Positions 17,353 to 62,563 of a stretch of 64,000 nucleotides of DNA are shown here, in pieces. The translations under genes and the position numbers were made by a program. How positions within the stretch are numbered: the stretch's first letter is position 1; each line of letters opens with the position of its first letter. The notes under the pieces were generated by a model. The model was not told where the DNA came from and made no database searches. It saw only the letters and a list, made by a program, of their open reading frames with translations. Source of the stretch: a virus (taxonomy: Duplodnaviria > Heunggongvirae > Uroviricota > Caudoviricetes); IMG/VR virus record IMGVR_UViG_3300032038_000047, positions 22,993-86,992 of that record; one strand, 5' to 3'.

Positions 17353-17420
17353 AAAGAATGTAGTTTAATTGGTAAAACGCTACTTAGAGATGGAGGTTCA
17401 ACCCCTCCCATTCTTTTTTC
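17353..17420 (+). ncRNA. tRNA-like small RNA with acceptor stem, D-arm and T-arm but a truncated anticodon region
   Basis: AAGAATG pairs with CATTCTT as a 7-bp acceptor stem. There is U8 and a D-arm GTTT-AATTGGTA-AAAC. The T-arm GGAGG-TTCAACC-CCTCC is followed by TTTTTT. Only 12 nt remain where the anticodon arm and variable loop should be. Confidence 0.4.
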
Positions 17421-17967: not shown

Positions 17968-19038
17968 TCAGACTTCTCCGGATTCTGATTTTTCATCTTT
18001 CAGCAGCTCAGCGAAGTACCGCTCAATTTCTGCATTTACCGCCTCTCTTTTTGCATCTGTGGTATGCTGGTAGATCCGTTTTAGAGTCTGGATCGACGAC
18101 CACCCGCCACGCTCCATGGCGTATTTGTCCGGAGTGCCGAGTTCCAACATGATAGAGGCGTTCTGATGCCGGAGGTCGTGCAAGCGCATATGCGGAAGCC
18201 CCTCCTCTTTACAGATCAGAGTGAGCCGCTTGCTTAGTGTGTTGGCGTGGACGTTGCAGAAAGGGATATTCCGTGTTACACACTCATCCAGTTTCAAAGC
18301 GAGATACGCAGGAACTGGGAGTGTACGCTTGGATTTCCTGGTTTTTGTAGTTTTGACCACAAACTCATGGTTCTCATTTGGGACTTTGGCCTTTGTTACG
18401 TGCAGGAGCTGCTTCTCGGAGTCCCAGTCACTATGCTCTAGCGCCAGTATTTCTGATCTGCGCAGCCCGAGGAACATCGCCAGCAGGACCGGAACCTCGA
18501 TGGATTCCCCATCCACTGCTCTGATCAGTTTTGCGCACTGGTCTTTATCCAGGATATTTCCCTCGAAATCCTCTGCTTGCGGCAGTGTGGCACGGATCTG
18601 GCGGCCACAGAACTGCTTTATTACTGCTGACAGAAGCCCTTTGACATTCGCAACGGTTTTGGGGCCGCTGGTCTTTGCCTCACGATTGATTGCCACCTGG
18701 GCTACATTATCGGTGATATTTCGGAGTTGCATGAGCATTTCCGGCTGCAGGTGGTTTTTCTTGATGTTTTTGTAGCCTCTGATCGTGGATGGGGACAACA
18801 CGTTGCTTTTCATGTTAATATATTTGGTGATGGCTTCTTCCAGAGTCATGGTGGATTGGTCGAGAATGGTTTCATGGTGCCGCTGGGCTAATTCACTGGC
18901 CAGGCGGATGCACTCATATTTATCAGGGCTGGTAACGCTCTGGTAGACGCTCTTTCCATTTTCGTCTTTTCCAAGATACACACGAAGTCTCCAGGTTCCT
19001 GATGGTAGTTGCGTTGGGTTCATGATATCTGCCTCCAT
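17968..19038 (-). CDS. int: Tyrosine-type site-specific integrase
   Basis: C-terminal catalytic region 'HMRLHDLRHQNASIMLELGTP...ERGGWSSIQTL.RIYQHT' carries the R..HxxR..Y signature of tyrosine recombinases. The N-terminal SAM-like/core-binding region is present. Confidence 0.85.
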   Translation of the reverse strand: MEADIMNPTQLPSGTWRLRVYLGKDENGKSVYQSVTSPDKYECIRLASELAQRHHETILDQSTMTLEEAITKYINMKSNVLSPSTIRGYKNIKKNHLQPEMLMQLRNITDNVAQVAINREAKTSGPKTVANVKGLLSAVIKQFCGRQIRATLPQAEDFEGNILDKDQCAKLIRAVDGESIEVPVLLAMFLGLRRSEILALEHSDWDSEKQLLHVTKAKVPNENHEFVVKTTKTRKSKRTLPVPAYLALKLDECVTRNIPFCNVHANTLSKRLTLICKEEGLPHMRLHDLRHQNASIMLELGTPDKYAMERGGWSSIQTLKRIYQHTTDAKREAVNAEIERYFAELLKDEKSESGEV

Positions 19039-19463: not shown

Positions 19464-19879
19464 TGGGATATTTGAAAGCAGAACTGTCACTCAAAAGTCC
19501 ATATCACATCACCAAGCATCGGCAGTATGAGCTGATGCACTTTTGTTTGCAGTACCCGGAGTGGAAAGCAGAGTACCATGATATTTATGAGGCGATTGGC
19601 AGCATCCAACGGTCAGAAGTGGCAATTGTCCATGAGAAAGGCAGACCGGTGGAAGATCTGGCTGAGCGGCTGACGGAACTGCGGGCGGCAATGGAGCTGG
19701 TTGAGAAAGCTGCTGACTATGCTGACAGAGAGTTGCGAGAGTTCATTATTCTCGCCGCAACAAAAGACGTGAAATACCCGGCGCTCAGTACTCGCTATGG
19801 GGTGCCCTGCGGAAAGGACCTGTGGTACAGCACATACCGGAAGTTTTTCTGGATACTAAGTCAGATGAAGGGGCTGTGA
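19454..19879 (+). CDS. Hypothetical regulatory protein
   Basis: 141 aa ORF in the lysogeny/early region. A role as an ArpU/RinA-like late regulator is speculative. Confidence 0.35.
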   Translation: MAVMGYLKAELSLKSPYHITKHRQYELMHFCLQYPEWKAEYHDIYEAIGSIQRSEVAIVHEKGRPVEDLAERLTELRAAMELVEKAADYADRELREFIILAATKDVKYPALSTRYGVPCGKDLWYSTYRKFFWILSQMKGL

Positions 19880-30590: not shown

Positions 30591-30851
30591 GTGTCAATCG
30601 CAGACAAACACGCCAACTTCAAAGACGTCGCCGGCATCAATGACATCATGAACTGGAGAGCTTTCCGGATTACCAAACGTGCGGACGAACTTCGGCAGGG
30701 CGGCATGACGGAGAGCGATATTGTGAAAGAGCTGTCTATTACCGTTATGGAGCTTCAGTCCTGCCGGGAAAGAGTCAGCGAGATGCATCCTGCGAAAAAG
30801 ACAGGCTTCGAGAAAAGGTATGAGGCCTGGCGCAAACGTGCAGAAGCGTGA
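30591..30851 (+). CDS. Small hypothetical protein
   Basis: 86 aa with a GTG start immediately after a TGATATTTCGTG junction. Confidence 0.35.
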   Translation: MSIADKHANFKDVAGINDIMNWRAFRITKRADELRQGGMTESDIVKELSITVMELQSCRERVSEMHPAKKTGFEKRYEAWRKRAEA

Positions 30852-30889
30852 TATTTGGAATTGGGAGGGGTGGCCTTTGGGTTGCCTCT

Positions 30890-31330
30890 CCTCCTTTTTC
30901 TGCTATGGCGAGGCGCAGTATAGCATGGTACAGATGAGCAATGGAAGAGCAAGGCGAGACGTGGCAAAGTGAGGCGTCGACTCGAAATGGAGTAGCGCAG
31001 AATAGCGAAGCGACAGAATGGCAATGCACTGACCCGATATGGCAGAGCGAAGAATTGCTGAGCGTTGAAACGAATTGAAACGGAATAGCGCGGAATAGCT
31101 GCGATAAGGGCCTGCCATGTGTAGAGATGAAAGGGCGAGGCGTGGCATTGAGTAGAGCTGCTTCGGCCAAGTACGGCATGGAAGGGCCAAGGAATGGCAA
31201 GGCGGATCGGTACGCTGAGATGCAACGGAAGAGCAAGGCGACCAAACGAGACGCAATGGAATGGCAACGAAGACCATAGCATAGGCGAAGCATCGCGGCG
31301 AGAAGTACAGAAACGGATTGGCTCAGCATA
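30890..31330 (+). repeat. Purine-rich, G/A-skewed degenerate tandem repeat region with no coding capacity
   Basis: About 440 bp of degenerate 12-18 bp units such as AATGGCAAGGCGAG, GGAAGAGCAAGGCGAGAC and GAATAGCGAAGCGACAGAATGGCA. There is no + strand ORF. The minus-strand ORFs there are low-complexity artefacts. Confidence 0.5.
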
Positions 31331-31410
31331 GTCATGCAACGGAAAGGTTTTGCAGCGCACAGATTAGAAAAGTCGAAACATTATATTTCAACAAACAGGA
31401 GGAAATTATT

Positions 31411-32085
31411 ATGCAAAATATGAGAGTTCGGATTACTACCACCGAGGGCATGCTGGGTACGGCGCCGATGGATCAGGATATTTACCGTCGGTTTATCGCA
31501 AGCAAGGCGCCGGATGCCGCAACCATTGAGGAAGAGGTAGCTGCAGTTGGCGTGGACGAGGTTGTCACCAATGGCATGACCGGTTTCCCCCGCTTGGAGG
31601 ATGGCCGGCCTTATGTTTATGACTATCAGATCCGGGGCATGTTCAAAGACTCCTGCGGCATGCTGTCCCGTCTGACCGGAAAGGACCCTGAGACCGGCAA
31701 AAAGAAAAAGGCCGTCAACGAGTCCGGAAAGCTCACTGCTTACAAGAAGGTCATCGACGGACTCATATTTGTGAATCCCAGGAAAATCCCGGTGGAGTTT
31801 TCCGGAGAAATGTCTCTGTGCCAGAGGCCGCTGCGTGCTCAGACAGCCCAGGGCGAGCGTGTTGCATTGGCAATTTCCGAGGAGATCCCGGCAGGTGCTA
31901 CGCTGGAGTTCGAGGTCGTCTGCTTCGATGACAGTCATATTTCCGCAGTACGGGAGTGGCTGGACTATGGAGCATTCCGAGGCCTGGGCCAGTGGCGTAA
32001 CTCCGGAAAGGGCAAATTCTACTGGGAGGAACTCGACGAGAACGGCAAGGTTATCGGCGGCAATAACTTCTCCAAAGCAGGCTGA
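31411..32085 (+). CDS. Hypothetical protein, possibly recombination-associated
   Basis: 224 aa ORF with GGAGG RBS, upstream of a DEDDh exonuclease gene. No family was recognised. Confidence 0.45.
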   Translation: MQNMRVRITTTEGMLGTAPMDQDIYRRFIASKAPDAATIEEEVAAVGVDEVVTNGMTGFPRLEDGRPYVYDYQIRGMFKDSCGMLSRLTGKDPETGKKKKAVNESGKLTAYKKVIDGLIFVNPRKIPVEFSGEMSLCQRPLRAQTAQGERVALAISEEIPAGATLEFEVVCFDDSHISAVREWLDYGAFRGLGQWRNSGKGKFYWEELDENGKVIGGNNFSKAG

Positions 32086-51933: not shown

Positions 51934-52500
51934 ATGACCAGAGATGAGGTGGTTAAAGGATATTTTGATTGGCTGTTGGAAGCGGTAACCTGCGATCTGT
52001 ATGCGCCCGGAGACTACTGGTATCTGCTTGATATTCTGTTCGATACCGAGTTCTATTGGACGTTGGACAGAGACAGTAACCGAGCGGACGACGGCATGCA
52101 TCTGAGACTATTATATTCTCAGGAGCATCCGGTGGAGGGACATAAACTGCTGCGGTCCATGCCGGAGTTCTGCACGGTTCTTGAGATGCTGATTGCTCTG
52201 GCAAAGCGGTGTGAGAACGAGGTCATGTATGATCCGGATCAGGGAGATCGAACAGCTCTGTGGTTCTGGATTATGCTGGAGAACCTCGGTCTGACCAGTT
52301 ACAACGACCGGGCATTTCGGAGGAATCATCGGCGTGTGGATCAGTATGTAGATGATATTCTGACGACCTTCATGTATCGGGAGTTTGAGCCCGACGGAAC
52401 CGGCTCTATTTTCCGTGTGAAGAATGTTCAGGCGGACATGCGGGACACCGAATTGTGGTATCAGATGCAGTACTACGTGAATGAGAATTTTGATATTTAA
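51934..52500 (+). CDS. Hypothetical protein
   Basis: 188 aa with AGGGAGGTGATCCG RBS. Confidence 0.45.
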   Translation: MTRDEVVKGYFDWLLEAVTCDLYAPGDYWYLLDILFDTEFYWTLDRDSNRADDGMHLRLLYSQEHPVEGHKLLRSMPEFCTVLEMLIALAKRCENEVMYDPDQGDRTALWFWIMLENLGLTSYNDRAFRRNHRRVDQYVDDILTTFMYREFEPDGTGSIFRVKNVQADMRDTELWYQMQYYVNENFDI

Positions 52501-52850
52501 TGTGGCAAAATCGGGTGAAAAAACCGAAAATTTGCCCGGAACAGATGCCCAAAAATCCGTGCCGGTTTTGCCGAAAAAAGTGGCACAAAACCGGTTTGAA
52601 AGTGGCACGAAATTGCTAAAAGTTACAAATTGTAACCAAATCTTCACAAAACTCTGCCACTTTGCCACTTTTGTGCCGGTTTTGAAATCAAAAGTGGCAC
52701 GGCAAAAACCCTGTATTTGCAACGGTTTGCGGGCATCTGTGCCACTTTGCCACTTTTTTTTATTATCTAATTGTGAATAAAAAATTTAAATATATATAGA
52801 TAGGTCGGAAAAAGTGGAAAAGTGGCAGAAACGCAATTTTATACAGATTT
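52500..52850. repeat. Candidate replication origin: iteron cluster of AAAGTGGCA / TGCCACTTT plus an AT-rich region
   Basis: At least 10 copies of (A)AAGTGGCA(C/G/A) in both orientations. CCGGTTTTG and AAACCGGTTT repeats. The AT-rich stretch TTTTTTTTATTATCTAATTGTGAATAAAAAATTTAAATATATATAGATAGG. It lies immediately upstream of the replication gene. Confidence 0.5.
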
Positions 52851-52880
52851 TTAGTGACTACGGAAAGGAGGCCGTCATGT

Positions 52881-55800
52881 GTGGACTTTATGCTCGTTAG
52901 TGTCAAATCACTGAAGAAAGATGAGATGGTCATCTACCCCAAGTTCATCGTTACCAGCAGCAAGGATCTCATGGTGCGCGGTGGCGATTTTTATGCGGTT
53001 TGGGACGACGAGAAAGGCATGTGGTCAACTGATCAGGACGACGTCACCCGGCTGATTGATCACGAGCTGGATCAGTACAAAGAGGAACACGCAGACCTGG
53101 CAGGTGCCAAGGTCCTCCACATGTGGGACGCCGACTCCGGAATGATCGACAAATGGCTTAAGTATGTACAGAAGCAGCTGCGGGACAACTATCATCCTCT
53201 GGACGAGAAACTGATATTTGCAAACTCCCCGATTGACCGGATGGACTATGCCAGCAAACGTCTGCCCTATGCTCTGGAGAAAGCAGAGACTCCTGCGTAC
53301 GAGGAGCTCATCTCCACATTATATTCTCCGGAAGAGCGGAAGAAGATTGAGTGGGCAATCGGCTCGGTTGTAGCCGGGGACTCCAAGAAGATTCAGAAGT
53401 TTCTGGTGTTCTACGGATCCGCCGGAACGGGCAAGTCAACGATCCTGAACATCATCCAGCAGCTCTTTGACGGATATTGTACCAGCTTCGATGCAAAAGC
53501 GCTGGGGTCTTCATCGGGAGAGTTTGCACTGGAGCCATTCAAAAAGAACCCTCTGGTGGCGATTCAGCACGATGGCAACCTGAGCAGAATCGAGGATAAT
53601 ACCCGGCTCAACAGTCTGGTCTCCCATGAGGAGATGACCGTCAACGAGAAGTTCAAGTCTCAATACACAGCAAGATTTCAGGCAATGTTATTTATGGGCA
53701 CCAACACGCCGGTCCGGATCACTGACAGCCGGTCCGGCATTATTCGCCGGCTCATTGATGTTTCCCCAACTGGAAACACGGTTCCTCTCAAGCGGTACAA
53801 CCAGCTGAAGGAGCAGGTCAAGTTTGAGCTCGGCGGAATTGCCCAGCACTGTCTGGAGGTCTATGAGAGCGATAAGGACGCCTATGAGAATTATATTCCC
53901 ACCAGCATGATCGGAGCGACCAATGACTTCTACAACTTTGTGGAGGAGTACTATGAGGAGTTCATTGCGGAAGATCCGGTGTCTTTGAACTTTGCATGGA
54001 TATTGTACAAGCACTACTGCGACGACGCCAAAGTGTCCTACCCTTACGGAAAACGAGTGTTCAAGGAAGAGCTCAAAAATTACTTCCGGGAATTCGAGGA
54101 CCGCGGGAAGAACAAGAAGGGCGAACTGACCAGAAGTCTTTATCGAGGGTTCCGTATGGAGCGCATGGGATATTCTGTGCAGGCGGATGCGGAAAGTGGA
54201 CAGGCAGAAGCAGCCGATCAGGAGGCCGAGGTAAACCCTTCGGCGGAGGAGGCTGTTGACATTCCGCCTTGGCTGATATTTGACAAGACAGAATCGCTGT
54301 TTGACAAGGAGTATGGGGATTGCCCGGCGCAGTATGCCAACGACGAGGGGACGCCCTTGAAAAGCTGGGACAACGTCCAGACTACCCTTGCTGATATTTC
54401 CACAGACAAACTGCACTATGTACGAACGCCGCTGCAGCTGATCGTCATAGATTTCGACATCAAGAACGACTCTGGCCAGAAGTCCCTGGAGCGAAACATT
54501 GCGGCAGCTTCCAAGTGGCCTGCAACATACGCAGAGCTGAGCAAAAGCGGCCAGGGCATCCATCTCCATTATATTTACAACGGAGATGTGGCGGCTCTGA
54601 GCAGGGTCTACGACGACAATGTGGAGGTCAAGATATTCAACGGAAAGAGTTCCCTCCGAAGAATGCTGACCAGATGCAACGACAGACCCATCGCAACGAT
54701 CAATTCCGGTTTGCCATTGAAAGGAGATCGCAAAATGGTGAACCACAGAACCATCAAGACAGAAGCGGGACTCAGATCCATGATCAAGCGTAATCTGCAG
54801 AAGGAGATTGGTGGCTTCACAAAGGTCAGCGTGGATTTTATCTACAACGATCTGGAAGCGGCATACAATGCAGGATTCAAATACGATGTGAGTGATCTTC
54901 GTCCGGCTGTATTCAGTTTCGCCGGCAGGAGTCATAACAACAAAGACTACTGCACGAGACTGGTTCGCAAGATGAAGTTTAAGTCAGAGGACCCGGCGGA
55001 ACCGGAAGCTTATCCTGATATTTCAGAGGTCGACCTTGCCTATGCGGAAGAAGCGCAGAAGGCCGATACGGGAGAGGCCAAGGCGGACGGTCCACTGATA
55101 TTTTTCGACGTGGAGGTATTCCCGAACCTCTGCGTTATTGTGTATAAGGCTGCCGGCTGCCCGGCGGTGAAGATGATCAACCCGTCTGCGGAAGAGGTAC
55201 GGCAGCTTATGCGGATGCGGCTGGTGGGCTTCAACAACCTTGGGTACGACAATTATATTCTCTATGCCATTGTGCAGGGCTTCTCTGTGGCGCAGCTTTA
55301 CAAGCTTTCCCGTCGGCTTATTAACAACGAGCGAGTCGGCATGCGGGAAGCAAGGAATGTCTCCTACACGGATATTTTCGACTTCTCTGCTACAAAGCAG
55401 AGCCTGAAGAAGTGGGAGATCGCCCTGGATATTCACCATCAGGAGCTGGGTCTTCCATGGGACGAGCCGGTACCGGAGGAACTGTGGCCGAAAGTTGCCG
55501 AGTACTGCGTCAATGACGTGGTGGCAACGGAGGCGCTATTCTTCCATCAAAACGCTGATTGGACCGCGAGGCAGATCCTGGCGGATGTGGCGGACAAGAC
55601 CGTCAACGACACCACCAACACGCTTACCACTGCAATTATATTCGGCGGCAACCGCAATCCGCAGGGAGAATTCAACTATCGGGATATGGGAAAAATGCCC
55701 AGCGGCCATTCTGGACTAAAGAACTGGCCCGGTCTGGACTGTGATCCGGAGTTCACGGTGTTCGACGATCTCGGACGGCCGGTGTTCCCTGGATATTCTT

Positions 55801-57044
55801 TTACCTTCGATAAGGAGGCGAAAAAGAAGGTCAGCTTCTACAGAGGGGAAGATCCTAAGGAGGGCGGCTATGTATATGCCGAGCCCGGGATCTACTGGGA
55901 TGTGGCGCTGCTTGATATTGCGTCCATGCATCCGTCAAGCATCGTAGCGGAAGAACTGTTTGGCCCGATTTATACCGCTCGATTTAAGGAACTTCTGGAT
56001 GCCCGTATCGCCATCAAGCATAAGGACTTCGACAAAGCCCGGACAATGCTGGACGGCAAGCTGGCGCCTTATATTCAGAAGGTTATCGACGGTGAGATTA
56101 CGACCAAGGATCTGGCCTATGCCCTGAAGATTGCGATCAACTCGGTATACGGGCTGACTGCTGCCAACTTTGAGAACCCCTTCCACGACCCCAGGAATCA
56201 AGACAACATTGTGGCGAAACGAGGCGCGCTGTTCATGATCAACCTTAAACATGAGGTGCAGAGCAGAGGCTTTACAGTGGCCCATATCAAGACCGATTCC
56301 ATCAAGATTCCAAATGCCACGCCGGAGATCATCCAGTTCGTTACGGACTACGGAAAGCTGTATGGATATTCCTTCGAGCACGAGGCGACCTACAGCAAGA
56401 TGTGCCTGGTGAACGACGCTGTGTACGTGGCTCGTTACGCCGCCAAAGAGAAGTGTGAGGAGCTTTACGGATATATTCCGGGAGACAACTACGAGCACGG
56501 CGGCGACTGGACGGCCACCGGCACACAGTTCCAGGTTCCATATGTCTTTAAGACGCTCTTCAGCCATGAGCCAATCGAGTTCAAGGACATGTGCGAGACT
56601 AAGGCGGTCAAGACAGCATTATATTTGGACATGAACGAGAACCTTCCGGATGTGGAAGCGGAAGAGAAGGAACTGGTGAAGCTTAAGAAGAAGCTGGCCG
56701 ATGAAAAGAAGCCTCCTTCCGAGGCGGATCGGGCTGCGATTGAGCAGCGTGTCGCAAAGCTCTCGGTTGATATTCCGAAGGGGCACGATTACCAGTTCGT
56801 CGGAAAGGTCGGATGCTTCTGCCCGGTCAAAGCAGGTCTTGGCGCCGGCAAGCTGATGCGTCAGGGCGCCAATGGATATTCTGCTGTAGGCGGAACCACC
56901 GGCTACCGCTGGATGGAGGCCGAGAAGCTGGCTCAGACCCCAAACTGGGATCAGTACATTGACAAAACCTATTATGCAGCGATGGTTGACACCGCTGTGG
57001 AAGCTATTTCGAAATACGGAGACTTTGAAGAGTTCTCTGCATGA
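52881..57044 (+). CDS. Replication fusion protein: P4/D5-like primase with SF3 helicase, plus a C-terminal family-B DNA polymerase with proofreading
   Basis: Walker A 'VFYGSAGTGKSTIL' (D5/P4-type SF3 helicase). A prim-pol-like 'IVIDFDIKND...GQGIHLHYIY'. Exo I 'IFFDVEVFPN'. PolB motif A 'LDIASMHPSSI' (DxxSLYPS) and motif C-like 'VAHIKTDSIKI' (..DTDS). The start is GTG at 52881 or ATG at 52890. Confidence 0.7.
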   Translation: MDFMLVSVKSLKKDEMVIYPKFIVTSSKDLMVRGGDFYAVWDDEKGMWSTDQDDVTRLIDHELDQYKEEHADLAGAKVLHMWDADSGMIDKWLKYVQKQLRDNYHPLDEKLIFANSPIDRMDYASKRLPYALEKAETPAYEELISTLYSPEERKKIEWAIGSVVAGDSKKIQKFLVFYGSAGTGKSTILNIIQQLFDGYCTSFDAKALGSSSGEFALEPFKKNPLVAIQHDGNLSRIEDNTRLNSLVSHEEMTVNEKFKSQYTARFQAMLFMGTNTPVRITDSRSGIIRRLIDVSPTGNTVPLKRYNQLKEQVKFELGGIAQHCLEVYESDKDAYENYIPTSMIGATNDFYNFVEEYYEEFIAEDPVSLNFAWILYKHYCDDAKVSYPYGKRVFKEELKNYFREFEDRGKNKKGELTRSLYRGFRMERMGYSVQADAESGQAEAADQEAEVNPSAEEAVDIPPWLIFDKTESLFDKEYGDCPAQYANDEGTPLKSWDNVQTTLADISTDKLHYVRTPLQLIVIDFDIKNDSGQKSLERNIAAASKWPATYAELSKSGQGIHLHYIYNGDVAALSRVYDDNVEVKIFNGKSSLRRMLTRCNDRPIATINSGLPLKGDRKMVNHRTIKTEAGLRSMIKRNLQKEIGGFTKVSVDFIYNDLEAAYNAGFKYDVSDLRPAVFSFAGRSHNNKDYCTRLVRKMKFKSEDPAEPEAYPDISEVDLAYAEEAQKADTGEAKADGPLIFFDVEVFPNLCVIVYKAAGCPAVKMINPSAEEVRQLMRMRLVGFNNLGYDNYILYAIVQGFSVAQLYKLSRRLINNERVGMREARNVSYTDIFDFSATKQSLKKWEIALDIHHQELGLPWDEPVPEELWPKVAEYCVNDVVATEALFFHQNADWTARQILADVADKTVNDTTNTLTTAIIFGGNRNPQGEFNYRDMGKMPSGHSGLKNWPGLDCDPEFTVFDDLGRPVFPGYSFTFDKEAKKKVSFYRGEDPKEGGYVYAEPGIYWDVALLDIASMHPSSIVAEELFGPIYTARFKELLDARIAIKHKDFDKARTMLDGKLAPYIQKVIDGEITTKDLAYALKIAINSVYGLTAANFENPFHDPRNQDNIVAKRGALFMINLKHEVQSRGFTVAHIKTDSIKIPNATPEIIQFVTDYGKLYGYSFEHEATYSKMCLVNDAVYVARYAAKEKCEELYGYIPGDNYEHGGDWTATGTQFQVPYVFKTLFSHEPIEFKDMCETKAVKTALYLDMNENLPDVEAEEKELVKLKKKLADEKKPPSEADRAAIEQRVAKLSVDIPKGHDYQFVGKVGCFCPVKAGLGAGKLMRQGANGYSAVGGTTGYRWMEAEKLAQTPNWDQYIDKTYYAAMVDTAVEAISKYGDFEEFSA

Positions 57045-59302: not shown

Positions 59303-59834
59303 GCACGCATTCCTGGGAGCCAGCAACTACCACTGGCTCAACTACGACATGGAGAAATTGATATCCACTTACCGAAACCGGCAGGCGGTTCAGCGGGGAA
59401 CCGAGCTCCATGCCTTTGCCAAGAATGCGATTGATCTGAGAATCAAGCTCCCACGCAACAAACAGACCCTCAGCATGTATGTGAACGATGCCATTGGCTA
59501 TCGGATGACTCCGGAGCAGGTGCTTTGTTATTCCGACAACTGCTTTGGAACCGCCGACGCCATCAGCTATAACGAGAATCAGAAGCTTTTGCGTATTCAT
59601 GACCTGAAAACCGGTGCCACGCCGGCTTCCATGAACCAGCTTCTTATTTACATGGCCATGTTCTGCCTGGAGTACGATATTGACCCGTCCAAGATTGACG
59701 CTGAGCTCCGCATCTACCAGAGCGACGAAGTGAACGTTTTGAATCCGACGACGGATGATATTATGCCGGTCATTGAGGCCATGATTGACGCCGATGAATG
59801 CATCTCACAATTACAAGCGGAGGGTAGAGACTGA
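59268..59834 (+). CDS. Hypothetical protein
   Basis: AGCAGGAGG RBS with ATG at 59268, in frame with the longer ORF at 59082. Confidence 0.45.
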   Translation: MNFNNHYNLIGKHAFLGASNYHWLNYDMEKLISTYRNRQAVQRGTELHAFAKNAIDLRIKLPRNKQTLSMYVNDAIGYRMTPEQVLCYSDNCFGTADAISYNENQKLLRIHDLKTGATPASMNQLLIYMAMFCLEYDIDPSKIDAELRIYQSDEVNVLNPTTDDIMPVIEAMIDADECISQLQAEGRD

Positions 59835-62563
59835 TGGACACAATGTTTACTGATATTTTGGACTTGCCGTTCCCGGATGACCAACTTGCGCACTACGGAA
59901 CACCTCGGCACAGCGGACGCTATCCCTGGGGTTCCGGTAAAAATCCGCAGCGCCATAAGAACTTTCTGACCATGGATGCGGAGCTCAAGAAGCAGGGCCT
60001 CAGTGAAAAAGAGCGGGCTCAGGCTATGGGCATGTCCACCACCGAACTGCGGGCCATGAAATCTATTGCCAGCGACGCGCACAAGGCGGAAGTGGCAGCA
60101 CAGGTGATTAAACTCCGCAAGACAGGTATGTCCTTTGACGCCATTGCACAGGAAACCGGTGTTTCAGCCTCCAGCGCCAGAAATATGGTAAAAGAGGATT
60201 ATGCCATTAAGCTTAGTTCCGACCGCAAGCTGGCTGAAGTGCTCAAAGAGCAGGTGGAACAGCACCCGTATCTGGATATTGGCGCCGGTGTCGAGCGACA
60301 GCTCGGCGTATCCGACACGAAGCTGAAAACAGCGGTCAAGATTCTGGAGCAGGAAGGATATTCGAAGAAGTACCTGAAAGTCGAGCAGGCCGGAAATCCC
60401 GGACAGTTTACGACGGTTATGGTGCTGGCCAAGGACAACGTGACCTATGAGGAGCTCAGGGAACACAAAGACCAGATTATTTCTCCCCAAGGCGTATTTT
60501 CCAATGACGGCGGAAATACCTTTCTTGGCATCAAACCGCCGGTCAGCATCGATTCCAAACGTATTGATATTTGCTATGCCGAGCAGGGCGGAACCGAGAA
60601 AGACGGCCTGATTGAGATCCGTCCCGGTGTCCCTGATATTTCCCTTGGCGATAACCGCTACGCCCAGGTCCGTATTGCGGTCGACGGAACGCACTATCTG
60701 AAGGGCATGGCCGTCTACAACGACAAACTTCCCGACGGTGTTGATATTCGCTTCAATACCAACAAGGATTCTTCCAAATCCAAGATGGAAGTTCTCAAAG
60801 AGATGAACACCATCAAAGCAACCGGCGAAGTGGATATGGATAATCCCTTTGGAGCCACTATCCGTCAGTATGAATACGAGGATGAAAAAGGCAATAAACA
60901 TTTGTCCGCCATCAATATCGTAAATAACGATGAAGACTGGGCCAAATGGTCCAAAACTCTGTCCTCTCAGATGTTGTCGAAGCAGTCTCCGGCCTTGGCC
61001 AAGCAGCAACTGGATATTACGTACGATCGCAAGAAGCAGGAATTCAACGAGATCATGGCGCTCACAAACCCGGTTCTCAAGAAACATCTGCTGGAGTCTT
61101 TTGCCGACGGTTGTGACTCCGCTGCTGTGGACCTGAAGGCCGCCGCCCTTCCGAGACAGGCTACCAAGGTTCTTATTCCAATGCCGAGCCTCAAAGACGA
61201 CGAGATTTTCGCCCCGTCCTACAACAACGGCGAGCAGGTCGTGCTGATCCGATATCCTCATGGCGGAACCTTTGAAATTCCGACGCTGACTGTAAACAAT
61301 AAGGCAAAAGAGGGCATTGACACCATTGGCAAGGACGCCCGAAACGCGGTTGGTATCAACGCCAAAGTGGCGGAGCGGTTATCCGGCGCCGATTTTGACG
61401 GCGATACGGTTACGGTTATTCCCATTGTCGGACAGAAGATCAAGACCAGCAACGCTTTGGAAGGCCTGAAGGACTTTGACCCGAAGCATGAGTACCGCGC
61501 CTACGAAGGGATGCCCAAGACCTGCAAGGAGAACGGTTTCCAGAAGCAGATGGAGATGGGCAAGGTCTCCAATCTGATCACCGACATGACCATTCGGGGT
61601 GCTACAGAGGATGAAATCGCCAGAGCGGTCCGGCATTCCATGGTCGTCATCGATGCGGAGAAGCACAACCTGGACTGGAAGCGTTCCTACCAGGAGAACC
61701 GGATTGCCGAGCTGAAAGAGAAGTATCAGGGCGGCGCCAACAAGGGTGCCTCCACGCTTATTTCGCAGGCAAGCTCCGATACCAGAGTGAATGAACGCAA
61801 ATCCGGCTACAAGATTGACCCCGATACCGGTGAGAAGATCTATACCGAGACCGGCCGAACCTACAAGACCGAGAAGGTCATGAAGGACGGCAGCGTCAAA
61901 ACCGAGATTCATAAAGCCCAGGAGAAGTCCACAAAGATGGCGGAAGCCTCTGATGCGTTCGAGCTCTCCTCCGGCACCAGAATCGAGAATGTGTACGCGA
62001 CGCATGCCAACAAGCTTAAAGCTTTGGCCAACGAAGCCCGCAAAGCATACGTGGCTACCGAAAACCCCAAACGGAACCCAACTGCGGCAAAAGAGTATGC
62101 GCCCGAGGTATCCTCTCTGCTGGCAAAACTGAACATTGCGCTGAAGAATGCGCCGAATGAGCGAAAAGCACAGCTTGTGGCCAGTAAAGTGGTTGAGACG
62201 AAAATTGAGCACAATCCAGAGCTGAAAGATGATGACGAGCATTTGAGCCGCGTCAGACGCCAGGCTCTTGCGGAAGCCCGTGCCAGAAGCGGAGCTCTGA
62301 GCAGGAAAGAGCGCAATATCGATATCACAGACCGGGAATGGGAAGCCATCCAGGCCAACGCCATCAGCCCGACCCAGCTCAAGACCATTTTATCCAATAC
62401 GGACCTTGACAAGCTGAAGGAACGCGCCACTCCGCGCAATAACAAGTCCCTGAACAGTGCCGCATTATCAAGAGCCAGATCGCTGCTGAACAGGGGCTAC
62501 ACATGGGCTGAAGTTTCCGAGCAAGTCGGGATCTCTGTCAGCACGTTGCAGAAGCAGATCTGA
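59834..62563 (+). CDS. Large (909 aa) hypothetical protein with several HTH-like segments
   Basis: N-terminal HTH-like repeats ('GLSEKERAQAMGMSTTELRAMKS', 'GMSFDAIAQETGVSASSARNMVKE') and a C-terminal 'YTWAEVSEQVGISVSTLQKQI'. No ATPase motifs, so it is not a terminase. It lies directly upstream of the CTATTGATATTT iteron array. Confidence 0.5.
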   Translation: MDTMFTDILDLPFPDDQLAHYGTPRHSGRYPWGSGKNPQRHKNFLTMDAELKKQGLSEKERAQAMGMSTTELRAMKSIASDAHKAEVAAQVIKLRKTGMSFDAIAQETGVSASSARNMVKEDYAIKLSSDRKLAEVLKEQVEQHPYLDIGAGVERQLGVSDTKLKTAVKILEQEGYSKKYLKVEQAGNPGQFTTVMVLAKDNVTYEELREHKDQIISPQGVFSNDGGNTFLGIKPPVSIDSKRIDICYAEQGGTEKDGLIEIRPGVPDISLGDNRYAQVRIAVDGTHYLKGMAVYNDKLPDGVDIRFNTNKDSSKSKMEVLKEMNTIKATGEVDMDNPFGATIRQYEYEDEKGNKHLSAINIVNNDEDWAKWSKTLSSQMLSKQSPALAKQQLDITYDRKKQEFNEIMALTNPVLKKHLLESFADGCDSAAVDLKAAALPRQATKVLIPMPSLKDDEIFAPSYNNGEQVVLIRYPHGGTFEIPTLTVNNKAKEGIDTIGKDARNAVGINAKVAERLSGADFDGDTVTVIPIVGQKIKTSNALEGLKDFDPKHEYRAYEGMPKTCKENGFQKQMEMGKVSNLITDMTIRGATEDEIARAVRHSMVVIDAEKHNLDWKRSYQENRIAELKEKYQGGANKGASTLISQASSDTRVNERKSGYKIDPDTGEKIYTETGRTYKTEKVMKDGSVKTEIHKAQEKSTKMAEASDAFELSSGTRIENVYATHANKLKALANEARKAYVATENPKRNPTAAKEYAPEVSSLLAKLNIALKNAPNERKAQLVASKVVETKIEHNPELKDDDEHLSRVRRQALAEARARSGALSRKERNIDITDREWEAIQANAISPTQLKTILSNTDLDKLKERATPRNNKSLNSAALSRARSLLNRGYTWAEVSEQVGISVSTLQKQI

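Follow-up and report, generated by a model that had tools for sequence, protein, structure and literature searches.

A conserved iteron module beside a helicase–primase–polymerase fusion gene is a candidate replication origin in a temperate siphophage

A 64,000-nucleotide stretch of DNA from a tailed phage (Caudoviricetes; positions 22,993 to 86,992 of IMG/VR record IMGVR_UViG_3300032038_000047), hereafter termed the window, contains an intergenic gap of ~380 bp (52501-52880) that extends from the stop codon of a gene for a 188-aa protein to the gene for a replication fusion protein. The gap is occupied by an array of short repeats (iterons), two opposed pairs of which flank the least stable DNA of the window. 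The feature is real, strongly non-random and evolutionarily conserved. The region is probably a phage replication origin of the type that combines iterons with an AT-rich unwinding element. The explanation that fits best, and that is held with moderate confidence, is an origin like those of Staphylococcus aureus pathogenicity islands (SaPIs) and phage P4, which would serve a replisome with fused helicase, primase and polymerase. This reading is proposed because opposed iteron pairs surround the most meltable DNA, because the arrangement is conserved while the iteron word changes, because the module is present in a single copy, and because a gene encoding a superfamily 3 (SF3) helicase and a winged helix lies next to it.

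Results

The iteron array was defined by the 8-mer AAGTGGCA, eight exact copies of which are located at 52578 (+), 52600 (+), 52655 (-), 52663 (-), 52692 (+), 52740 (-), 52748 (-) and 52820 (+), all matching the 9-mer AAAGTGGCA. Elsewhere in the 64 kb the word occurs at 19617 and 60090 only. Shuffled sequences gave an expectation of 2.3 copies per 64 kb, and none of 100 shuffles reached ten; for a 250-bp span the expectation is ~0.009 copies, and hand arithmetic puts the Poisson probability of eight at ~1e-21. No other 8-mer family of the window reaches five copies in any 260-bp span. Together with two one-mismatch copies, at 52500 (ATGTGGCA) and 52812 (AAGTGGAA), and three variant copies, all sites fall inside 52499-52827 (~330 bp), with units of 8-9 bp and an 8-bp spacing in the tandem pairs. 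The initial annotation had described at least ten iterons in a 350-bp intergenic region. The cluster and the gap are indeed present, but ten copies are reached only if one mismatch is allowed, the gap is some 30 bp longer, and the repeat coordinates were 1-7 bases off.

Read from the upstream gene towards the replication gene, the module consists of two direct copies, a minus-strand pair, one plus-strand copy, a second minus-strand pair, a T-run, the AT-rich spacer, an A-run, a plus-strand pair and a ribosome-binding site. At its distal edge, a degenerate iteron, AATGTGGCA (52499-52507, +), has one mismatch to AAGTGGCA and overlaps the stop codon of the upstream gene. The two direct copies of AAAGTGGCA lie at 52577-52585 (+) and 52599-52607 (+), the first minus-strand pair, a head-to-tail tandem TGCCACTTTGCCACTTT with an 8-bp period, at 52655-52671 (-), and the single plus-strand copy of AAAGTGGCA at 52691-52699 (+). 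Interleaved CCGGTTTTG repeats, also reported initially, were confirmed as three exact copies (52562 (+), 52586 (-) and 52676 (+), with one more elsewhere in the window). They belong to the iteron variant GTGCCGGTTTTG, which, read in context, is a two-base variant of the iteron GTGCCACTTTTG. This variant occupies 52559-52570 (-) and 52673-52684 (-), and a further variant repeat, CAAAACCGGTTT (52586-52597, +), pairs in inverted orientation with 52562-52570. The distal iteron block is bracketed by CAGATGCCC / GGGCATCTG, a 9-bp inverted repeat free of mismatches, at 52542-52550 and 52731-52739.

The core of the module is formed by the two pairs proximal to the replication gene. The left arm, the tandem pair TGCCACTTTGCCACTTT at 52740-52756 (-), is followed by the T-run, and the right arm, the tandem pair AAAGTGGAAAAGTGGCA at 52811-52827 (+), has a degenerate first copy and is preceded by the A-run. 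The arms are opposed, form a 26-nt inverted repeat with 85% complementarity, and flank a ~50-bp spacer of ~90% A+T (52757-52808), a putative DNA-unwinding element that contains the conserved boxes CTAATTGTGAATAAAAAA and TATATAG. By nearest-neighbour energies, the 50-mer starting at 52753 (90% A+T) is the least stable in the window, at -46.7 kcal/mol compared with -53.5 kcal/mol for the next and a window mean of -68.7 kcal/mol (standard deviation 4.4), and the spacer is likewise the least stable 40-, 60- and 80-bp duplex of the whole window. The AT tract noted initially is thus real, but it is located between the last two iteron pairs and not after all of them. As single-stranded DNA, the 102-nt core folds into an 18-pair hairpin of -18 kcal/mol (z = -4.55), a value that none of 200 shuffles equalled. 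A strict detector, requiring an exact tandem 7-mer pair on both sides, returned exactly one module in 64 kb, and an Rfam search gave no match in the module region.

A 9-mer resembling a DnaA box, TTATTCACA, is present in the spacer at 52772-52780 (-). It has one mismatch to TTATCCACA and is the reverse complement of a conserved GTGAATAA box. Relaxed DnaA-box matches across the window were at chance level (17 observed, 14.6 expected), and the homologous box in relatives is, by eye, at least two positions off the DnaA consensus.

The gene next to the module (52881-57044, +; phrog_4210) encodes a fusion protein of 1,387 aa. It likely starts at the GTG codon at 52881 (VDF...), judged by homology to the starts of relatives; residues are numbered here from the ATG at 52890. 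Its ribosome-binding site, GGAAAGGAGG (52862-52871, +), lies 35 nt from the right iteron pair, and the same GAAAGGAGG precedes the gene in relatives. An N-terminal domain is followed by a D5/P4-type SF3 helicase (~aa 130-340) and a winged helix (aa 345-421). Pfam matches to DUF5906 and Pox_D5 were obtained, together with a match to the P4-family model TIGR01613 that lies under the curated cut-off (E 2.4e-17) and a sequence match to SaPI5 PriRep5 (7OLA). An AlphaFold (AF2) model of aa 1-480, with a mean pLDDT (predicted local distance difference test) score of 75, showed an ATPase core and then a helix-helix-helix-beta-hairpin winged helix at aa 345-421. Foldseek matched this model to poxvirus D5/E5, African swine fever virus PrimPol and SaPI5 PriRep5 (7OLA, TM-score 0.47-0.51) at a probability of 1.00. 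This fold comparison was required because the first 480 aa, searched as a profile in PDB sequences, recovered just the P-loop region of the NrS-1 primase-helicase.

The C-terminal part of the protein carries motifs that, on established motif knowledge, we take to be those of an archaeo-eukaryotic primase (AEP) and a family-B polymerase. The AEP motifs VIDFDI and SGQGIHLHY (longer form SKSGQGIHLHY) lie at ~aa 510-570. They are followed by a family-B polymerase with exonuclease (~aa 735-1384), marked by the motifs FDVEV, DIASMHPS, KIAINSVYG and KTDS and by matches to Pol II. Judged from its sequence, helicase, primase and polymerase are united in one polypeptide. The linker that precedes the AEP motifs (residues 400-475) is hypervariable in every relative.

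The conservation of the module was studied in related loci (L numbers) drawn from IMG/VR and JGI metagenomes and from GenBank phages. At least 17 related phages, including the cultured Faecalibacterium phage FP_oengus, carry inverted tandem pairs, a T-run, an AT-rich spacer and an A-run. While this architecture stays, the 8-10-mer word varies between lineages, examples being AAAGTGTCCCA (L001), AGTGTCAT (L002), AACTGGTA (L033-35), AAGTGGCTAAA (L031/40), TTTTGGGACA (L104), TTTTGGTACC (L105), TTTTTGACTA (L114) and TTTTGGCCAC (L073 and FP_oengus). Each of these relatives has clustered copies of its word and a core of inverted pair, AT spacer and inverted pair. Eleven loci with just 43-60% protein identity to the window retain exact AAGTGGCA, and their spacers have diverged; contigs with this word include IMGVR_UViG_3300031760_000067, IMGVR_UViG_3300031760_000042 and Ga0326511_10000676. 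Elements found repeatedly across the relatives' spacers are the T-run, CTAtta, GNGAAAAA, TATATA(G/A) and the A-run, which always point the same way as the downstream genes. In six of seven further relatives tested, the module spacer was the least stable 50-mer of its locus. A hairpin-like AAAAACC(C)...GGGTTT box is present 10-40 nt upstream of the left core pair in several relatives, for which RNAalifold found no consensus structure.

The position of the module differs between relatives. It lies upstream of the polymerase gene (pol) in the window, L056, L061, L245 and L249; between a superfamily 2 (SF2) helicase gene and a block of HNH, nuclease and RNA polymerase (RNAP)-like genes in L055, L057, L058, L063/L250, L073 and FP_oengus; and upstream of a dUTPase gene in L047/L243, L240 and L252. 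At the second of these sites in Gordonia phage Gravy lies a least-stable region rich in repeats, giving a candidate origin at ~54.6-54.95 kb. Many relatives have no intergenic gap before pol. The module is therefore not tied to pol expression, since it precedes differing genes and many relatives lack a gap at that site. The strict detector returned zero or one module per related locus, and no examined sequence had more than one. FP_oengus gave zero by these strict criteria; located separately, its motif cluster and its least stable 50-mer both lie uniquely at 26.9-27.1 kb of the complete genome.

An HNH endonuclease gene adjoins the module in L055, L057 and L058, on its downstream side, and an HNH endonuclease gene at 28343-28825 of L116 corresponds to Gravy gp89. 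A homing endonuclease beside the module might explain the differing intergenic sites at which it is found.

Discussion

On one interpretation of these data, the 8-9-bp sites would be bound by an initiator specific for their sequence. With SaPI Rep and P4 alpha as models, this would most likely be the N-terminal SF3 helicase and winged-helix module of the fusion protein. The opposed head-to-tail pairs could then position two helicase rings that melt the AT-rich spacer, the AEP-primase part would prime, and the family-B polymerase of the same polypeptide would extend. The six to eight distal sites (52499-52700) may have an accessory, cooperative or copy-control role. The right-hand pair lies so close to the ribosome-binding site that bound initiator may, in addition, feed back on how the replication gene is expressed. 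Taken together, the module's single copy, its variable position and its lack of ties to pol expression speak for a replication site acting in cis rather than for one that regulates a particular gene.

The closest parallel is the SaPI origin, in which 6-12 iterons, at least two per side in opposite directions, surround an AT-rich center and are bound by a self-loading SF3 helicase through its winged helix (PMC9371898). The module described here resembles it in its number of iterons (eight exact, two one-mismatch and three variant copies) within one non-coding region, in having two or more opposed iterons on each side of an AT-rich spacer, and in lying beside a gene whose product carries an SF3 helicase and, after it, a winged helix. 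It differs in that the iterons are 8-9-bp head-to-tail tandems and not units of 5-6 nt, and in that most copies lie on one side of the AT region. Moreover, the SaPI origin is located immediately downstream of rep, whereas in the window the module stands upstream of the gene with the helicase, and in relatives between other genes for replication; the helicase shares one chain with AEP-primase motifs and a family-B polymerase; and no covariation between winged helix and iterons was detected. A second likeness is found in Enterococcus phage Abitsa (Efquatrovirus), for which a SaPI-like origin was predicted in silico, with seven repeats of 10 bp round an AT-rich region and a self-loading helicase like PriRep5 (PMC13517437). 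Both cases thus concern repeats around an AT-rich region in a phage with a PriRep5-like helicase, and both origins are predictions; Abitsa, however, belongs to a different phage group, which has separate helicase and polymerase genes.

The P4 alpha protein combines a primase, an SF3 helicase and a C-terminal domain that binds the origin, and acts in an ori/crr system. Like alpha, the fusion protein unites a P4-family SF3 helicase and a primase in one polypeptide and, judged from sequence, would recognize octamer-size repeats. Here, though, the helicase precedes the primase and a family-B polymerase is added, and where P4 needs a second cis site, crr, the 64-kb window has no second cluster. The theta plasmids (pSC101, P1, F and RK2) and the lambda O/ori system also combine repeated initiator sites with an adjacent AT-rich unwinding element, the whole lying next to the initiator gene or within it, and in such plasmids and in lambdoid phages inverted copies can autoregulate the rep promoter. 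Their iterons, in contrast, are 17-22 bp long, helically phased, bound by a WH1-WH2 Rep protein or by O, and usually accompanied by DnaA boxes, as opposed to 8-9-bp units at 8-bp spacing with one DnaA-box-like 9-mer that is not conserved in relatives.

Several observations weigh against the proposed origin. The distribution of the iterons is lopsided, with ~8 to the left of the AT tract and two to the right. The conserved boxes of the spacer, CTAtta..GNGAAAAA and TATATAG, always point the way of the downstream genes; they exceed the needs of a plain unwinding element and could mark a non-canonical promoter. GC skew was positive almost throughout the window and fell to ~0 only past 58 kb, so that no switch was seen at the module (52.7 kb) or at 31 kb, where the initial annotation had allowed that one might map; the skew is uninformative, however, because the long open reading frames (ORFs) of the window are overwhelmingly on the plus strand. 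The single-copy status refers to the 64-kb window and the complete FP_oengus genome only. No residue of the fusion protein, winged helix included, tracks AAGTGGCA across the polyphyletic phages that carry it. A column-wise comparison of five AAGTGGCA phages with 18-20 phages of other motifs gave zero discriminating columns in this protein. Extended to seven conserved proteins, among them the 188-aa protein, the SF2 helicase, the exonuclease, an 80-aa protein and a 909-aa protein with helix-turn-helix (HTH) segments and similarity to RNA-dependent RNA polymerase (RdRP), the test found no residue specific to the AAGTGGCA group. The recognition-helix segment KR(V/I)FKEELKNYF is nearly identical in phages with different motifs, and the null result is unlike the situation in SaPI Rep, whose specificity maps to the C-terminal domain.

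Other comparisons agreed with this result. The wing of the winged helix is like that of the window in L061 and unlike it in L056, L249 and L250, although all share the motif. Per-protein identity tables showed no protein that is more alike among phages of the same motif than among others, and neither the sliding identity of the fusion protein nor the HTH segments of the 909-aa protein gave a link to the motif. Small DNA-binding genes adjacent to the module were considered as partners of a cassette and set aside: the XRE gene of L250 and the ribbon-helix-helix-like genes of L243 have no homologue in the window. How the motif is read may depend on a handful of residues, on a protein encoded outside the sampled loci, on a host factor, or on the shape of an A/T-run plus a short core. 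The origin proposed in the initial annotation fits the anatomy, the conservation and the neighboring SF3 helicase, but the binder put forward with it is not linked to the motif by covarying residues.

The main alternative is that the region is a regulated promoter and not an origin. A protein bound at the two core pairs, one upstream of the -35 element and one in the 5' untranslated region, would then enclose the promoter and loop to the distal sites. Such a role is considered unlikely, yet it accounts for several features: the module directly precedes a gene, and in several phages 6-36 nt separate the right pair from the ribosome-binding site; the TATATA(G/A) and GNGAAAAA boxes keep the gene's orientation; a TTGTGA-N16-18-TATATA arrangement can be read in the window; the AAAAACC(C)...GGGTTT box stands ahead of the left pair in several phages; and in L250 an XRE-type HTH gene lies just upstream. 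On the other hand, a consensus scan gave weak matches only, and in 16 of 17 module spacers the best sigma-70-type scores on the gene strand did not exceed those of composition-matched shuffles, a result that leaves non-canonical promoter types aside. The same module also precedes unrelated genes (pol, HNH endonuclease, dUTPase and the nuclease/RNAP-like operon), many relatives express pol without a promoter gap, and the neighboring small DNA-binding genes are not common to the motif-sharing phages. Ten sites for one promoter, with no second target in 64 kb, would moreover be unusual for a regulator. The two roles may be compatible, as with rep autoregulation in iteron plasmids. A sigma-54 promoter, considered for the TGGCACG in the motif, was rejected by eye: in the sole copy that TTGC follows, the GG-to-GC spacing falls one base short, and the motif is not constant among relatives.

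A purely structural element, acting as a cruciform or as single-strand hairpins in DNA or leader RNA without a specific binder, for example as a single-strand initiation or priming signal, is highly improbable. It would explain the strong hairpin of the 102-nt core, the complementarity of the arms that is kept while their sequence changes between phages, and the failure to find a covarying protein. However, every arm is a head-to-tail tandem of one 8-mer, distal direct repeats are present (52578 (+) and 52600 (+)), and RNAalifold gave no consensus for the flanking box; one word fills all stems of a genome and is identical across phages with diverged spacers, whereas independent stems would drift to different sequences. 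Hardly more credible, and if anything slightly less, are sites for the phage's own HTH-bearing RdRP/YonO-like putative RNAP (59834-62563), either as its promoter or as a transcription-primed origin like the T7 primary origin. The 909-aa product has HTH domains at both ends, belongs to phrog_4291 and has been described as a putative RNAP of the supercluster, and in many relatives the module is found just upstream of the nuclease/RNAP-like gene block; against this, there is one site in 64 kb that include genes for tail, lysis, early functions and replication, the HTH sequences show no correspondence to the motif, and RNAP priming is not required because the fusion protein has AEP-primase motifs of its own. 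Least probable is a partition (centromere-like) or packaging (pac/cos) site of repeated protein-binding sites. Like the module, parC-type centromeres and sites for terminase small subunits typically have short-repeat arrays on both sides of a central region. The phage has an integrase, though, and no partition gene turned up among the ~25 ORFs scanned, while the module is within the replication block, several kb from the genome end in Gravy and from many contig ends, and far from the terminase in FP_oengus.

The 909-aa gene (59834-62563, +; phrog_4291, 'RNA-dependent RNA polymerase') encodes an N-terminal conserved HYGTPRHSGRYPWGSG box and three HTH-like segments. Proteins of this type have been described as a YonO/RdRP-like putative RNAP for a phage supercluster (bioRxiv 10.1101/842583). 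The Gravy genome and many related contigs end a few hundred bases past this gene, and for that reason the genome terminus is probably located just beyond it.

To return to the proposed SaPI/P4-like origin, its type is already known, but no replication origin for this phage group (FP_oengus, Lactococcus phage 1706 and the fusion-carrying Gordonia, Arthrobacter, Streptomyces and Rhodococcus phages) was found in PubMed Central open-access papers and bioRxiv preprints, so that within the literature searched none precedes it. The module offers a simple searchable signature, namely an inverted tandem pair, T-run, least stable AT spacer, A-run and inverted tandem pair, that pinpoints a candidate origin in the cultured members FP_oengus and Gravy. 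It also provides a natural series of motif variants for start-site choice by a self-loading helicase of the D5/P4/SaPI type fused to a primase and a polymerase. The result is expected in kind, and leaves the puzzle of how the motif is read.

A bolder version of the origin reading, regarded as decidedly unlikely, is that the module serves a one-polypeptide replisome as an origin cassette whose position is flexible, with an iteron word that is read without leaving a signature in any conserved replication protein. The word could then be read through a few residues or the DNA shape of an 'A/T-run plus 4-6-bp core', by the RdRP-like putative RNAP with its HTH segments, or by an unsampled early protein or a host factor, and the spacer boxes would be a defined start site for priming or transcription. 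If true, this would define origin recognition for a phage supercluster spanning Firmicutes and Actinobacteria hosts.

The repeat region at 30.9-31.3 kb, which the initial annotation had named as an alternative place for the origin, was rejected as it has neither tandem or inverted iteron architecture nor an AT-rich tract. It corresponds to 470 bp (30852-31317) between plus-strand ORFs at 30591-30851 and 31318-32085, and is purine-rich and G+C-rich, with no plus-strand ORF of 60 aa or more and no Rfam match. Loose imperfect repeats are present, e.g. GCAA(T/C)GGAAGAGCAAGGCGA, together with several (A/G)TGGCA words. A non-coding RNA or the degenerate remains of a coding sequence could account for this stretch.

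The window is a 64-kb part of the genome of a temperate siphophage, with tape-measure and tail genes at its start, a tyrosine-integrase gene (17968-19038, -) and a block of replication genes at 52.9-62.6 kb; the genome's head and terminase part falls outside the window. The nearest cultured relative is FP_oengus, whose fusion protein is 53% identical. A megablast search of phage records returned no close relative, and the top protein identities were 53% in phage records and 64-66% in metagenomes. When the helicase part (the product of 52890-54329) was compared with 5.8 billion proteins, the nearest homologue was 64-65% identical, and the nearest relative in IMG/VR 66%. As the nearest helicase homologues are just 64-66% identical, this phage lineage has no close relatives in the collections searched.

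The gene upstream of the module (51934-52500) belongs to phrog_4678, of unknown function. Four paralogues of DUF6353/phrog_2152, also of unknown function, are encoded in this one phage at 27214-28167, 28184-29158, 46593-47396 and 50099-51277, two of them adjacent. An Rfam tRNA match (52 bits) at 17354-17416 (+), ~550 bp from the integrase gene, for which ARAGORN makes no call, is possibly a partial tRNA at the attachment site. A scan of genome contigs for the tandem 17-mer gave 120 matches, at chance level and none related to the window. The same tandem, AAGTGGCAAAGTGGCA, was present at 12 or more intergenic sites of an unrelated viral contig, IMGVR_UViG_3300044731_002225 (55.7 kb; L046, L049-L052, L059 and L060), which shares no proteins with the window at E<1e-4. 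Each of these sites adjoins GACGCCACTTTTTT(T)AAACGTTTTT arrays, and together they look like a genome-wide repeat system.

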